The notes beneath the pieces are model-generated. The model made no database searches, had not been told where the DNA came from, and worked only from the letters and a program-made list of their open reading frames with translations. Below are positions 6,818-45,305 of a stretch of DNA of 64,000 bases, piece by piece. Position 1 is the first letter of the stretch, and every line of letters starts with the position of its first letter. The translations under genes and the position numbers were made by a program. Source of the DNA: Eledone cirrhosa. Lineage: Eukaryota. Where the stretch lies: the NCBI GenBank assembly GCA_964016885.1, contig OZ024746.1, positions 99,014,001 to 99,078,000 on the forward strand. Direction: 5' to 3'.

Positions 6818-7179
6818 ATACATACATACATACATACAAAGTGTTAAAACAATCAAATTTTAGTTTAGTACATTTATTTGCTGACAATTGTTTCTTCCAG
6901 AGGGAAGTCTGGGATCTTCGGAGCATAGGGAATGTCGAAACATGTGACTAAAATCCTAGTCATTCAGAACATTTAGGGTACATAATTGTTTTTAGTGTGA
7001 AAGGCATGTGGAGAGTCAGGAGTTAAAAGGATGTTCTGCTTGAAAGAACACAATTTCAGGCAGCACTGGTTGGAAGTGTAAGAGGTATAAGTAAAAAGTA
7101 CAGGCAAAAAGGTTATAAGCAAGGAAAAGTGGTGTACAATTCAGGAGTCAATACATATATATACATATATATATATATG

Positions 7180-7561
7180 CAGAAGTTATATTTAATTTGT
7201 TAGGATTCAACAAGCTTAAAAGTTTCATAACTGATATAAAGCACTCAACAGTTTACTGGAGTAAATATTCAATATATTAATAAATGGAAACTATATTTAT
7301 AAAACCATAATTATTTTATTAGATATATTTCAAGGGTAACTAAGGCAGTTTTGGTGCGCTTTCATCAAATAAAATACAAAATTTGTTTTATAAATGTTGA
7401 CATACCCGTAGAAAAACACCCTCGACGGTTGAAGGTTCGCTGGACTATACAGCGAACCTTCAACCTTCAACTATCTGATGAAAGCGCACCAAAACTGCCT
7501 TGAAATATATCTCATAAAATAATTATGGTTTTATAAATATAGTTTCCATTTATTAATATAT

Positions 7562-23065: not shown

Positions 23066-24349
23066 CGTGTCATAGAGAGAAGAACGAGGTACAGGGAAGC
23101 TATCTCTCTCCTCTGTAGTGTCAGAGAGAAGAACGAGGTACAGGGAAGCTATCTCTCTCCTCTGTAGTGTCATAGAGAGAAGAACGAGGTACAGGGAAGC
23201 TATCTCTCTCCTCTGTAGTGTCATAGAGAGAAGAACGAGGTACAGGGAAGCTATCTCTCTCCTCTGTAGTGTCATAGAGAGAAGAACGAGGTACAGGGAA
23301 GCTATCTCTCTCCTCTGTAGTGTCATAGAGAGAAGAACGAGGTACAGGGAAGCTATCTCTCTCCTCTGTAGTGTCAGAGAGAAGAACGAGGTACAGGGAA
23401 GCTATCTCTCTCCTCTGTAGTGTCATAGAGAGAAGAACGAGGTACAGGGAAGCTATCTCTCTCCTCTGTAGTGTCAGAGAGAAGAACGAGATACAGGGAA
23501 GCTATCTCTCTCCTCTGTAGTGTCAGAGAGAAGAACGAGGTACAGGGAAGCTATCTCTCTCCTCTGTAGTGTCAGAGAGAAGAACGAGGTACAGGGAAGC
23601 TATCTCTCCTCTGTAGTGTCATAGAGAGAAGAACGAGGTAGAGGGAAGCTATCTCTCTCCTCTGTAGTGCCATAGAGAGAAGAACGAGGTAGAGGGAAGC
23701 TATCTCTCTCCTCTGTAGTGCCATAGAGAGAAGAACGAGGTACAGGGAAGCTATCTCTCTCCTCTGTAGTCTCAGAGAGAAGAACGAGGTACAGGGAAGC
23801 TATCTCTCTCCTCTGTAGTGTCATAGAGAGAAGAACGAGGTAGAGGGAAGCTATCTCTCTCCTCTGTAGTCTCAGAGAGAAGAACGAGGTAGAGGGAAGC
23901 TATCTCTCTCCTCTGTAGTCTCAGAGAGAAGAACGAGGTAGAGGGAAGCTATCTCTCTCCTCTGTAGTCTCAGAGAGAAGAACGAGGTACAGGGAAGCTA
24001 TCTCTCTCCTCTGTAGTCTCAGAGAGAAGAACGAGGTACAGGGAAGCTATCTCTCTCCTCTGTAGTCTCAGAGAGAAGAACGAGGTACAGGGAAGCTATC
24101 TCCCTCCTCTGTAATCTCATAGAAAGAAGAACGAGGTAGAGGGAAGCTATCTCCCTCCTCTGTAGTGTCATAGAGAGAAGAACGAGGTACAGGGAAGCTA
24201 TCTCCCTCCTCTGTAATCTCATAGAAAGAAGAACGAGGTAGAGGGAAGCTATCTCCCTCCTCTGTAGTCTCAGAGAGAAGAACGAGGTACAGGGAAGCTA
24301 TCTCTCTCCTCTGTAGTCTCAGAGAGAAGAACGAGGTAGAGGGAAGCTA
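23066..24349. repeat. 49-51-bp minisatellite, ~25 copies
   Basis: Unit (TCAT)AGAGAGAAGAACGAGGTACAGGGAAGCTATCTCTCTCCTCTGTAGTG, with no unique spacers. Confidence 0.97.
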
Positions 24350-24739
24350 GTGTGCTATGTAATACAATGCACTGCTGTTGGGACACAAATTCACAAAAGA
24401 ATAATAGAAACAATATACTGATCCACATACGTCTCCTGTGACATTTACACTCACTACCTAAGTAGGTTTTATTATAAGCTCACAATATCAACACTATTTC
24501 AACCATCAGTCATTGTTAAACGGCCCCTTTCTCCTTGTCACACATACATCCACGTTCACTCCCCCCCCCCTACACACAAGCCCTTACATGACATGCAAAT
24601 TACTATATTTCGCTGTTAATTGTAGTAGGGACATTTTTTTAGTAAAATATTTCACTTCACAAGCATGTTATTTTGGTCATGTGTATTATTTTCATTTTTT
24701 GTAAATAACTATCACACACACAATATATATATATATATA

Positions 24740-27145: not shown

Positions 27146-27567
27146 TGAAGTAAAAGTTAAGTGGAGATATCTAAGAGGAAGAGCACACAGTCCATAGGAC
27201 GAGTTTAGTATATATAATTACAACAGTGACATAAACAGGTACCCAAATTCCAGAACTCAACGAAACTCGAGTACCTGTTTATATGACTGTTGTAATTACA
27301 TATATATACACACATGTATTCCCCAGATATTAAGTACTCCGATGATTAGTGGTTTCCCCGGTTTCAGCACTGCCTGCCTGCCTGCATATATATATATATA
27401 TAAATGAATGGCTTCTACAGGAGTAGAACTGTTTCATTCGAAGGAAATCATCAAACAGTTCTAGTCCTGTAAAAGCTATTTCTATATTAAATATTGTATA
27501 TACTCGACTATGTATTGAGTACTTTACTTACTGTGGTTACCCCCGATTGAACCCGATACCCCCCCCC

Positions 27568-27616
<49 letters not shown>

Positions 27617-27742
27617 AAGTTTTATTTAAATTGTTGGGTTACAACGAGTAAATATTTATAACTGATATAAAAGCACTCAACAAGTATTTGGAGTATATTT
27701 ACGATATTAAATAAATGGAAACTATATTTATAAAACCATATT

Positions 27743-27808
27743 TATTTCATTATATATATTTCAGGGATATCATATTAAAAATATGGTATGCCTTCCTCAG
27801 ACAAAATA
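27743..27808 (-). ncRNA. Minimal type I hammerhead ribozyme
   Basis: TATTTTGT-CTGAGGA-AGGCATA..TATCCCT-GAAA-TATATA-TA-ATGAAATA. Confidence 0.75.
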
Positions 27809-28549
27809 CAATATAAACAGTCTTATAAATAGATAGATTTGACATACCTTACAACTTCAACTTACATTTAAAAAGTTGATTTGGTAAAAGTTTTTTATCA
27901 CAGTTTTTTTTTTTTTTTATCACAGTTTTTTTTAAACTCAGTTTTTTAGCTCAGTTCTGATATAAACCTAGGAATTTTAAACTAGACATATGATCATTAT
28001 TTTTCACACATTATTGATACGTGTCTCATTCATGAATACTGATATTTACATTATAATACCTAATTCATACGAATTGATATTTTTACATTGATGAAACATG
28101 TTTTAAATCTGCCTCGTTTATCTCTGGATATTTTTCTTTTCTCGCTATGTAACGGCTGTTTTCTCTCCTAACCACATATATCTCTCTCTACCTTAATACT
28201 AGAACTAAATAAATAAATAAATAAATATATCATTGATACGTCATTCAACTGGTGCCCAACTACCTATTTTCTTTCTCTCTATCTATATCTCTATTTTTTC
28301 TCTCTCTCTATCTCCCTCTGTGTTTTTTCTCTCTCTATCTATCTGTTTCTTTACATGAATTTCTTCTCTCTATCTATCTCTATATCTATCTCTCTCTGTT
28401 TAGTTGCATGCATTTCTTCTTTTTCTTCGCTTTTTTTCTTTCTTTTTATAACTGTCCCTAACATTTTTCACTACCAAATCAACTTTTTAAATGGAAGTTG
28501 AAGTTGTAAGGTATGTCAAATCTATCTATTTATAAGACTGTTTATATTG

Positions 28550-28615
28550 TATTTTGTCTGAAGAAGGCATACCATATTTTTAATATGATATCCCTGAAAT
28601 ATATATAACGAAATA
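28550..28615 (+). ncRNA. Minimal type I hammerhead ribozyme
   Basis: TATTTTGT-CTGAAGA-AGGCATA..TATCCCT-GAAA-TATATA-TA-ACGAAATA; 8-bp stem I and palindromic stem III. Confidence 0.8.
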
Positions 28616-28680
28616 AATATGGTTTTATAAATATAGTTTCCATTTATTTAATATGGAAACTATATTTATAAAACCATATT

Positions 28681-28746
28681 TATTTCGTTATATATATTTC
28701 AGGGATATCATATTAACAATATGTTATGCCTTCTTCAGACAAAATA
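28681..28746 (-). ncRNA. Minimal type I hammerhead ribozyme
   Basis: Reverse complement of the 28892-28957 motif. Confidence 0.8.
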
Positions 28747-28891
28747 CAATATAAACAGTCTTATAAATAAATAGATACGACATACCTTTCAATCACCTTG
28801 CATTTGGGAGGTTGATCTGCCAAATCAACCTCCCAAATGCAAGGTGATTGAAAGGTATGTCGTATCTATTTATTTATAAGACTTTATATTG

Positions 28892-28957
28892 TATTTTGTC
28901 TGAAGAAGGCATAACATATTGTTAATATGATATCCCTGAAATATATATAACGAAATA
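28892..28957 (+). ncRNA. Minimal type I hammerhead ribozyme
   Basis: TATTTTGT-CTGAAGA-AGGCATAAC..TATCCCT-GAAA-TATATA-TA-ACGAAATA. Confidence 0.8.
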
Positions 28958-29085
28958 AATATGGTTTTATAAATATAGTTTCCATTTATTTAATATCATA
29001 AATATACTCCAAATACTTGTTGAGTGCTTTTATATCAGTTATAAATATTTACTCGTTGTTAACCCAACAATTTAAATATAACTTT

Positions 29086-29140
<55 letters not shown>

Positions 29141-30724
29141 AATTAGTATCGGTGCACTGAAATAACGATGCATGTACCTTCGAAATATATATAATAAAAC
29201 ATTTGATTATGTGAACGTCTTCATTTATTAATATTCTGAATAATATTAATTCTTCATTTATTAATATTCTGAATAATATTAATAACTCCAGAAAACTTCC
29301 TCGTAGAGTGCTTTTAATCTATTGTAAAACTATATTCATTGAGTAATCAATGAACCATATTAATCCTTGGTTATATATATATATATATATATATATATTT
29401 AAAGGTTAAACAAAGTTCAATGAATAAATCAATGAATAAAGTTTTACCATAGATTAGAAGCACTCCACAGCTTTGTTTTTCCGGAGTTATTAATATTTCA
29501 CTAACACTAAAAAAGAAAAAAAAAAAAAAAAAAAATCATCTAAGGGAAACTCCACCACCCTTGGTGAACACGGTATTTATTTTCAGCAAGCTTTCCTTAT
29601 ATAATGTATCCATTCATTTTTCAAGATGATATAGTATAATTTGAAAATTTGGTTGCTATTTCTAACAGGTAGACTGACTACGTAGTAACTCCCTTGGCTT
29701 GCTTTTAGCTATTATGTAGGGCTAGTGGTCAGAATCGTAACAAAGTGGTCAGAGAATTGTAACAACTGATTCACTTTTTATTAGTAGTATCGCTTTGTAT
29801 ATATTGCTGTATAGCCGAAAAGGTGAGCGATGAGCCAGCAGCAGTCCTAGGACATTTATATTGTCGACCGCATGACATTTTAACAAGTCCTTTGTCTAGC
29901 CAAACACCACACCACACAATCCGATATGCAGCCAGTTTGTTTTGTGTTGTCATAATATTCTTTATTCGCAGTTGTATAAATAACATTACAAATATTTTAA
30001 TTAGATACATAAACATTACAAATATGTAAATTTTGCCTTCCCTTTTCTTTCTTTCCCTCTTTCTTTTCCCCCGTCTTTCCATTTGTAATATTGTTGACAG
30101 ACCTTAATAAAATTATATTGTTTTAAATATATATACATAGATAACAACAAATGCGTAAATAAGATAAATTTTTTGTAGTTCTTTCAGAATAACATTACAA
30201 TTATAATGTTGATTAACACACGAGAGAGAGAGAGAGAAATAGATAGAGAGAGAGAGAGAGAGAACGAAAGAGATAGATAAATATATATAGAGAGAGAAAA
30301 GGAGGGGGAACAACAACGACCATCAATTCACCACCAATTGCGACAATCGGCCCCACATTTCATCATAAGGGTTAAGAGACAAGCCAATACGATCTAATCA
30401 TTGCCACGGGTGATGGCGAGGCTAAGGCGCCGAAACAGCCAGATACCCTCACATTAGACAATTAAACATGTTTCGGTTTGTTTTCAAATATGATGGTTCT
30501 ATCATCAACATACTAGATATATATCTGACTATCCTACTTCTCCGAAAGGATGCGGGAGGAAACGGGGATACTTGGATAATAAGGAAATACATAATCATAT
30601 ATAATTACGTGCTACACACACACACAATACATATAATTATATATATATATACGCATGGAAATGATTGTTGTTAGTTCACATTTGAATAACTCTTGAGAGA
30701 GAGAGATGTATATCTTTACACACA

Positions 30725-33680: not shown

Positions 33681-33704
33681 TATATATATATATATATATA
33701 TATG

Positions 33705-34322
33705 GAAAGTTATATTTAAAATTGTTGGGTTACAACTAGTAAATATTTATAACTGGTATAAAAGCACTCGACAAATATTTGGAGTATATTTACAATATTA
33801 AATAAATGGAAAACTATATTTATAAAACCATATTTATTTCATTATATATATTTCGGGTATATCATATTAACAATATGCTATGCCTTCATCAGACAAAATA
33901 CAATATAAACAGTTTTATAGACAAATAGGTTCGACATACCGTTATAACACCGACTTCATTTGAAGAGGTTTACTCTGGCTGTGAAAAAATTTTACACAGA
34001 GAGAAAGAAAAAGAGAGAAAACAGAAAGAAAGACAGAAAACGAAGAAAAGGAAGAAAAAGAAGAGAAAGAGGAAATGCATGGAACAAAATAGAGAGATGG
34101 AAAGATAGATAAAGCGAAGAACTTCATGTAAAGAAACAGAAAGAGATATATATATATATAGAGAGAGGAAATAGAGATAGATACATATATATATATATAT
34201 AGAAAATTAGGTAGTGGGAGGTCATTTTGAGTAAATGTATCAATGATACGTTTATTTATTTATTTATTTATTTAGCTCAAGTATTAATGTAAGGGAGATA
34301 TATATAGAGAGAAAAAAATAAG
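33705..34322 (-). mobile_element. PLE pseudo-LTR-like element of the 27616-29087 family, with HHR at 33835-33900
   Basis: Inverted homology to 28150-29087; TATTTTGT-CTGATGA-..-GAAA-TATATA-TA-ATGAAATA. Confidence 0.8.
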
Positions 34323-44708: not shown

Positions 44709-44789
44709 GCTCTACTGACGAACGGTTCCAACCGTGACCATCTCCACTGAAAAGTTTCGTGAAATAGTCTTTTTAAGACTATATAGAGC
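44709..44789 (+). ncRNA. Type I hammerhead ribozyme with a 25-nt insertion at stem II
   Basis: GCTCTA-CTGACGA-ACGG ttccaa CCGT-[25 nt]-GAAA-TAGTCT tttta AGACTA-TA-TAGAGC. Confidence 0.7.
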
Positions 44790-45093
44790 ATTTGTTGTTT
44801 TTCCAAATTGAAGGATGAGTATTTAAACTTTATTTTATTCAGAGTTAAGGCCCTATTGGTTTTTCCCTGGATTTCACAAAATCTGTGGATAAAATCCCTG
44901 TCTTGACTCTTTTGAATTGAGTTTGAATTATTTTCCCACATCTTACGTTAACTATTTTCCCATTTTGACGTTATAGTCAGTTATATATTATGGAATACTG
45001 TTGGCTTCTTGCTCACAATAATTTCTATATTTTCATTTATGGCTGCATCTAATAGGGTACGTCAAAATTATTTATAAAACTGTTTATATATTG

Positions 45094-45158
45094 TATTTTG
45101 TCTGATGAAGGCATACCATATTTTAATTTGGTATCCCTGAAATATGTATAATGAAATA
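45094..45158 (+). ncRNA. Minimal type I hammerhead ribozyme (27616-family), in a unit spanning ~45055-45287
   Basis: TATTTTGT-CTGATGA-AGGcATACCA..TGGTATcCCT-GAAA-TATGTA-TA-ATGAAATA. Confidence 0.75.
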
Positions 45159-45305
45159 AATATGGTTTTATAAATATAGTTTCCATTTATTTAATATCAT
45201 ATATCTACTCCAAAAACTTGTCGAGTGCTTTATATCAGTTATAAAATATTTACTTGTATCCCAACAATTTTAAATTGAACTTTTGCATATATATATATGT
45301 ATATA

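Follow-up and report, generated by a model that had tools for sequence, protein, structure and literature searches.

Penelope-like elements (PLEs) of the Hydra clade are marked by RWK-type, DKT, CxCx5C, CxxC and CxH motifs (PMC8557442, section 11), and their typical copies are described as inverted, truncated at the 5' end, tailed on one side and inserted in (TA)n (PMC8557442). In truncated PLEs, hammerhead ribozymes have been reported on opposite strands at distances of 100-700 bp (Cervera and de la Pena, 2014, PMC4209133). A PLE protein was described to extend both target strands in vitro, with reverse transcription starting at two internal sites which define the tail, and to nick AT-rich DNA, its own pseudo-LTR (pLTR) included (PMC11167929). 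Viroid-like RNAs are defined by working paired ribozymes together with rolling-circle replication (PMC10162972, PMC12382478). In Drosophila, inverted copies of Penelope give rise to siRNAs matching the inverted regions (PMC3681739). No four-arm Penelope case was found in the literature consulted; the element lists and the HHR-file supplements of PMC8557442 may hold the family.

The window analysed here is a stretch of 64,000 nucleotides from Eledone cirrhosa (contig OZ024746.1 of assembly GCA_964016885.1, positions 99,014,001 to 99,078,000 of the forward strand). The locus lies between two (TA)n flanks and consists of four pLTR arms, A to D, and a non-coding segment, U. Its features, in window positions, are the following.

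27570..27614, no strand: left (TA)n flank, the insertion target, read from the sequence
27616..27886, minus strand: arm A, subfamily-1 pLTR with a 78-nt tail (27616-27693), 99.3% identical to L048 and L050
27743..27808, minus strand: hammerhead A (CUGAGGA), predicted cut at 27751, from the descriptor scan
27887..28471, plus strand: U, a 585-nt part of the 3' non-coding region of subfamily 1 that precedes the pLTR, as in L031, L032 and L048
28472..28652, plus strand: arm B, pLTR of subfamily 1 without a tail, stopping about 4 nt before the usual end
28550..28615, plus strand: hammerhead B, predicted cut after 28607, from the descriptor scan
28608..28949, plus strand: 342-nt unit between the two plus-strand cuts, a predicted dumbbell, 26% GC, 95% paired
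28644..28654, no strand: B/C junction, a 9-nt loop with AT microhomology and no (TA)n left
28653..28819, minus strand: arm C, pLTR of subfamily 2 without a tail, stopping about 12 nt before the usual end, 100% identical to L053 and L088
28681..28746, minus strand: hammerhead C, predicted cut at 28689, from the descriptor scan
28817..28823, no strand: C/D turn, a recurrent head-to-head junction at the likely transcript 5' end
28821..29087, plus strand: arm D, subfamily-2 pLTR with an 81-nt tail (29007-29087) and a private 2-nt deletion
28892..28957, plus strand: hammerhead D, predicted cut after 28949, from the descriptor scan
29088..29138, no strand: right (TA)n flank, read from the sequence

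The descriptor scan found four type-I hammerheads at the locus, in the order -,+,-,+ and with identical layout. Their cores consist of CUGANGA and GAAA, stem I has 8 bp, the closing stem II has 3 bp, and stem III is palindromic (AUAUAUAU), with 2 bp and a 4-nt loop. The descriptor matched four times on the locus and not once in 2000 doublet shuffles. Rfam at the gathering threshold gave no matches in the window, hammerheads included, and the hammerhead call is based on the descriptor and on conservation in the family. The isolated motif folded no better than shuffles (z -0.32), and the palindromic stem III costs hammerhead B or D +2.9 kcal/mol as a monomer. The cut sites are 342 nt apart on the plus strand and 938 nt apart on the minus strand. 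A previous sequence-only reading of this DNA had described the four alternating hammerheads, their cut sites and the units of 342 and 938 nt, and all of these coordinates hold in the descriptor scan. It had also taken the hammerheads to be motifs of a PLE pseudo-LTR, in agreement with the finding that each pLTR of the family carries one. The type-I motif, the short palindromic helix III, the long helix II and the opposite-strand pairs are shared with the PLEs of PMC4209133, where pairs are mentioned, whereas the present locus has four hammerheads in alternation. Elsewhere in the window, an unrelated type-I hammerhead was noted at 44709-44789 on the plus strand, with an 8-bp stem III, a 4-bp stem II and a predicted cut after 44783, which would be stable as a monomer. 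A tandem repeat of 49-51-nt units occupies about 24000-24350.

When the genome itself (3.0 Gb) was searched with arm B, 40 other places at 99% identity were obtained, these 40 being the ones scored out of 1030 candidates. Exact matches in the whole genome numbered 1467 for the subfamily-1 hammerhead motif and 490 for the subfamily-2 5' motif. Examination of 20 longer stretches showed that the arm forms the terminal repeat of an element; U lies ahead of it, and the longest copies also have an open reading frame (ORF) before it. Such ORF-bearing parents are L048, L031 and L032 for subfamily 1 and L154, L157, L159 and L161 for subfamily 2. The position and orientation of U are the same in L031, L032 and L048, and the differences are mainly microsatellite indels. 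The pLTRs are direct in L154 and L157 and inverted in most other copies; a hammerhead in the pLTR, a tail on one arm (in 25 of 26 parsed hairpins) and TA flanks are further features of the family. The motifs of the parent ORF are RWR, DKT (DKTN), YRDD, CxCx5C (CNCRDRSKC), NIIY...YVG, CxxC (CDLC) and CxH (CRH). YRDD and NIIY...YVG were both present in L159 and L048, as expected of a reverse transcriptase (RT) with a C-terminal endonuclease of the GIY-YIG type, and the neighbours of the ORF in a protein atlas were RT/GIY-YIG clusters at 0.95-0.98; Pfam gave nothing at cut-off on the parent ORFs. In some copies the frame changes at a C run (WFAPPP...) between the RT and the endonuclease, and in others it continues (L048, L031, L032 and L154 were compared with L157, L159 and L161); this may be homopolymer slippage or a sequencing error. 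Older copies of the same family, 74-90% identical, are present in the window at 7165-7560, 33690-34303 and 45053-45298.

On this motif evidence, the arms belong, as pseudo-LTRs, to a young Penelope-like element that bears Hydra-clade motifs, the clade being assigned by motifs. In common with the Hydra clade (Craig et al., 2021, PMC8557442), the element has the C-terminal GIY-YIG-like domain, RW[K/R], DKT, the CxCx5C linker, CxxC, CxH, a (TA)n target, the pLTR hammerhead, inverted 5'-truncated copies and a tail at one end. It differs from the description in that source by RWR in place of RWK, by a tail of about 80 nt versus 30-40, by a pLTR-to-pLTR unit of about 3.7 kb (L154) versus "generally under 3 kb", and by the fusion of two insertions at this locus.

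The arms belong to two subfamilies which differ from each other at 15 places. Arms A and B have two differences and one difference, respectively, from the commonest subfamily-1 core in 165 columns, compared with 16 and 14 from subfamily 2. Arm C is identical to the commonest subfamily-2 core in 163 columns and arm D differs from it at two; D is 99.3% identical to L155 and L160. Counted in alignment columns, there are 14-15 differences between B and C, 3 between A and B, and 2 between C and D, and those between B and C track the two genome-wide subfamilies. At 28609, the diagnostic site nearest to the loop, arm B has the base of subfamily 2, and this makes the 81-nt hairpin perfect. This base was found in 2 of 33 parsed subfamily-1 arms, B included, and in 72 of 1539 exact motif matches, most of them from a third subfamily. 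Its presence in arm B could go back to an uncommon allele of the source, of which L149 is an example, or to a conversion from C, for which quasi-palindrome correction is a candidate source (PMC3820800). The base is no proof of conversion, L149 being a subfamily-1 copy which carries it. The third subfamily (L124-L153), about 89-90% identical to arm B, also has many short head-to-head hairpins.

Both halves of the locus recur in the genome. A-U-B is the usual inverted layout of subfamily 1, and arm A ends at the common 5' turn point of the family. The C-D hairpin turned at the same point in all 40 scored loci, and exact hairpin junctions were located at no fewer than 66 loci for subfamily 2 and at 89 for subfamily 1. 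The 35 subfamily-2 loci examined included 5 duplicates, which were set aside, and 4 that did not parse; 26 hairpins were left. These had 12 distinct junctions, and the one between C and D was shared with 5 of the 26. The 81-nt tail was on exactly one arm in 25 of the 26; the arm with the longer 5' reach was tailed in 10 and tail-less in 9. A non-modal variant was common to both arms in 8 of the 26 hairpins, which is compatible with the same source RNA for both arms but also with a fold-back copy. Hairpins of both subfamilies turn at the motif TTT(C/T)ACT(A/G)CC, which is seen at 28466-28475 and 28817-28825 of the window and genome-wide; it resembles an initiator element and is likely the transcription start.

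Each insertion would thus comprise two reverse transcriptions, primed from both strands of the cut target. The two primings would take place at the two internal start sites of the element, one with the tail and one without, and the two cDNAs would be joined head to head, often at the 5' end of the RNA. Two separately primed cDNAs fit better than one fold-back, because a tail-less cDNA folding back cannot add a tail. The C-D hairpin was also considered as a non-autonomous palindromic MITE moving as a unit. This was rejected, since the junctions vary, since subfamily 2 has ORF-bearing copies and since only about 132 of the 490 arm matches lie in tight hairpins. As a possible trace of cleavage in vivo, hairpins turning within 30 nt of the cut site were counted; there were 69, by a sequence pattern that other subfamilies share. 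Among 50 of these read by eye, both arms started at the cut in none and one arm did so in about 7, where a uniform spread gives about 6.

The junction of B and C is where the locus departs from the usual layouts. The standard tail-less end was found in 24 of 27 subfamily-1 ends and in 35 of 44 subfamily-2 ends, and B and C are both short of it. Truncated junctions of the B/C type gave 7 exact matches at 6 loci, and an intact hammerhead on both sides was present only here; in this exact-pattern search, by which diverged copies would be missed, the junction of the 342-nt unit had no daughter copy elsewhere. Standard ends at most 30 nt apart were found by exact-pattern searches at 7, 1 and 1 loci, 9 in all, and such counts of neighbouring insertions are lower bounds. 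The sequence-only reading had recommended looking for similar zig-zags in the genome, and two were found among these 9 loci. The first, L172 (G000:C2:219484107-219487164), has at about 1060-1970 a second series of four hammerheads, -,+,-,+, formed by two hairpin insertions of different variants lying tail to tail across a short (TA)n; its plus unit has 533 nt, of which 510 are paired, and its minus unit 558 nt. The other, L170 (G000:C637:34387-37442), combines two variants at about 995-1740, which together contribute three alternating hammerheads and are set apart by a short TA spacer. Convergent hammerhead pairs occur in L166 and L168. The four-hammerhead zig-zag is rare but not unique.

We consider it highly probable that the locus consists of two young head-to-head Penelope-like insertions, one of subfamily 1 (A-U-B) and one of subfamily 2 (C-D), which share a (TA)n target and are joined by their tail-less ends. 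Two insertions are preferred to one fold-back series because the differences between B and C follow two genome-wide subfamilies. The subfamily identity of each arm, the genome-wide recurrence of both halves and the tail on one arm only are direct observations. Each insertion targets (TA)n, and neighbouring insertions therefore arise. Here a single (TA)n likely received the two insertions in succession. As B and C are both short and share only AT, either the AT-rich end of the first insertion would have been the target of the second, or a short stretch of (TA)n between them would have been deleted later; ends of this kind without (TA)n need an unusual target site or a later deletion. The four alternating hammerheads would be a by-product, since every pLTR carries one. 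The proposal of the sequence-only reading that a PLE pseudo-LTR was folded back repeatedly does not agree with the 14-15 subfamily-specific differences between B and C.

A single complex integration, with a fold-back of the reverse transcriptase or of a repair polymerase at the 3' end of B through the AT microhomology, copying of a few dozen B bases and a switch to a subfamily-2 template giving C-D, appears improbable to us. The plus-strand junction does read as B continuing into the 9-nt loop, as in a fold-back primed from B, and C mirrors B exactly over its first 36 nt, without any B/C difference from 28580 to the loop. However, that stretch is identical in both subfamilies except for 28609 and is therefore nearly uninformative, the junction and the tailed end of C-D are both standard, as in any ordinary member of the 66-locus class, and neighbours of two variants with (TA)n spacers exist elsewhere (L170, L172). 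An assembly artefact, whether from a chimeric fold-back read or from two repeat loci joined in error, is very unlikely. Errors of this type are known to arise at long inverted repeats with near-perfect arms. Assembly problems with such structures are also noted in PMC8557442. The B/C junction is known from the assembly; read searches (4 runs on 27300-29400 and 4 on 28600-28700) gave short repeat pieces only, with none bridging B/C among those listed, and the read samples are possibly from other individuals. A fold-back read gives identical arms, but the arms here differ at 15 (B/C), 3 (A/B) and 2 (C/D) columns, which also argues against the chimera that had been named as a possible refutation of the structure. 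Furthermore, the B/C differences match two real subfamilies, the turns lie at the usual points of the family, the loops contain no foreign sequence, and the end of B and the start of C are not direct repeats which an assembler would overlap.

The sequence-only reading had proposed a viroid-like circle released between the two plus-strand cuts. The 342-nt unit consists, as had been read, of two near-perfect hairpins: 28608-28688, with identical 36-nt arms and the loop 28644-28652, and 28689-28949, with arms of 128 and 126 nt (the 2-nt deletion in D) and the loop 28817-28823. Modelled as a circle it has an MFE of -249 kcal/mol with 324 of 342 nt paired, and its two polarities are identical in 334 of 345 columns (97%). 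Because of this identity, the model describes a double-stranded dumbbell rather than an ambisense replicon. Within this unit, which falls in the 200-800-nt range, ribozyme sequence is present in both polarities: ligation would rebuild the plus hammerhead sequence, and ribozyme C lies inside the minus strand. The size, one hammerhead per polarity and the rod fold are shared with Avsunviroidae, viroid-like RNAs and the retroviroid CarSV as described in PMC10162972 and PMC12382478. Unlike in these, the minus ribozyme here exactly complements the plus ribozyme, the rod is a dsRNA with near-perfect pairing in which neither ribozyme is predicted to refold, and there is a single genomic copy. With animal non-LTR retrozymes (PMC7229834; bioRxiv 10.64898/2026.07.22.740005) the locus shares low GC, the type-I hammerhead, PLE origin and two same-strand ribozymes, here 342 nt apart. 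Retrozymes are head-to-tail tandem repeats (PMC7229834), whereas here the arms alternate in orientation and an antisense copy of the two same-strand ribozymes lies between them. Nor is the unit dispersed as a family, the complete B/C junction occurring once among the 7 exact matches at 6 loci.

Folding was evaluated by nearest-neighbour MFE differences for forcing the ribozyme fold, a measure which omits tertiary contacts, Mg2+ and proteins. In a transcript of 28472-29087, B costs +3.4 and D +9.5 kcal/mol, and forcing both plus ribozymes at once takes +97 (range +95 to +100) kcal/mol, since whichever of them is not folding is paired with C. After the cut by B, D costs +82 to +85 kcal/mol, and after the cut by D, B costs +16 to +19 kcal/mol. 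If the transcript includes arm A, the costs are +81 for B and +89 kcal/mol for D. On the minus strand C costs +3.4, A +32 and both +98 kcal/mol, and in the circle either ribozyme costs +98 kcal/mol to refold, in either polarity. Each antisense arm thus buries one sense ribozyme in these models, and release of monomers from a longer RNA by folded ribozymes was not obtained computationally. The caveat of the sequence-only reading that perfect pairing may block hammerhead folding was decisive here. The two cuts needed for release are predicted to exclude each other, so that the circle would hardly be excised and would not cleave itself again.

It is consequently hardly credible that an RNA circle of 342 nt, with hammerheads that work in both polarities, comes from this locus in the manner of a viroid or retroviroid. 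The cut sites are correctly placed for it, the single cuts look feasible at +3 to +10 kcal/mol, animal retrozyme monomers were circularised by RtcB in vitro (PMC7229834), and a retroviroid with a DNA form is known in carnation (PMC12382478). Apart from the folding costs, the near-identity of the polarities and the lack of a daughter junction among exact matches speak against it, and PLE hammerheads are reported to cleave weakly and not as single motifs (PMC4209133). For PAc, no reads at the cut site were seen, and its hammerhead is described as protein-assisted (PMC11167929); weak cleavage and the protein assistance of one such hammerhead cut both ways for the release of a circle. A cheaper path in the models is a composite ribozyme, made of the B core and the D site, which costs +5 to +10 kcal/mol in cis and about +10 kcal/mol in trans at 1 M standard state. 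By this path a trace of the 342-nt product in vitro is conceivable, if B cuts in the brief interval before C is transcribed. The B core would cut its own site during transcription and then the D site in trans, perhaps helped by the PLE protein. We give a slim chance to the idea that back-to-back insertions are in this way an accidental template, with their own pLTR promoter, for a stable 342-nt double-stranded dumbbell circle.

The two joined insertions are more readily understood as a source of double-stranded RNA. If the pLTR start near 28470, deduced from the turn-point motif, is active, the transcript would form a duplex of at least 140 bp. A transcript of the locus, if made, is predicted to be a long dsRNA with at most one ribozyme folded at a time, which is in line with the dsRNA suggested by the sequence-only reading. 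By analogy it would likely be a substrate of Dicer, giving siRNA, or of ADAR, rather than a replicating circle. The siRNA from inverted Penelope copies is, on the same analogy, the closest known function: the Drosophila copies (PMC3681739) are likewise rearranged, with long inverted repeats that would give dsRNA, but siRNA was shown for them, whereas for the present locus it is a prediction.

On this reading, the zig-zag locus is ordinary PLE insertion geometry. Hammerheads on opposite strands of a small rod can arise from stacked inverted insertions, and the pattern alone is no mark of a viroid-like RNA. If a circle were nevertheless formed, it would offer a path, open to testing, by which a transposon could give rise to a viroid-like architecture; transposon debris would then be a source from which hosts produce proto-viroid circles carrying a ribozyme in each polarity, and L172 (533 nt) would be a second instance. 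For the family itself, its very young age makes it a natural record of the PLE mechanism: more than 150 hairpins turn at one 5' point, and the tail on one arm only, which can be either arm, fits a separate priming at each of the two RT start sites that were observed in vitro.
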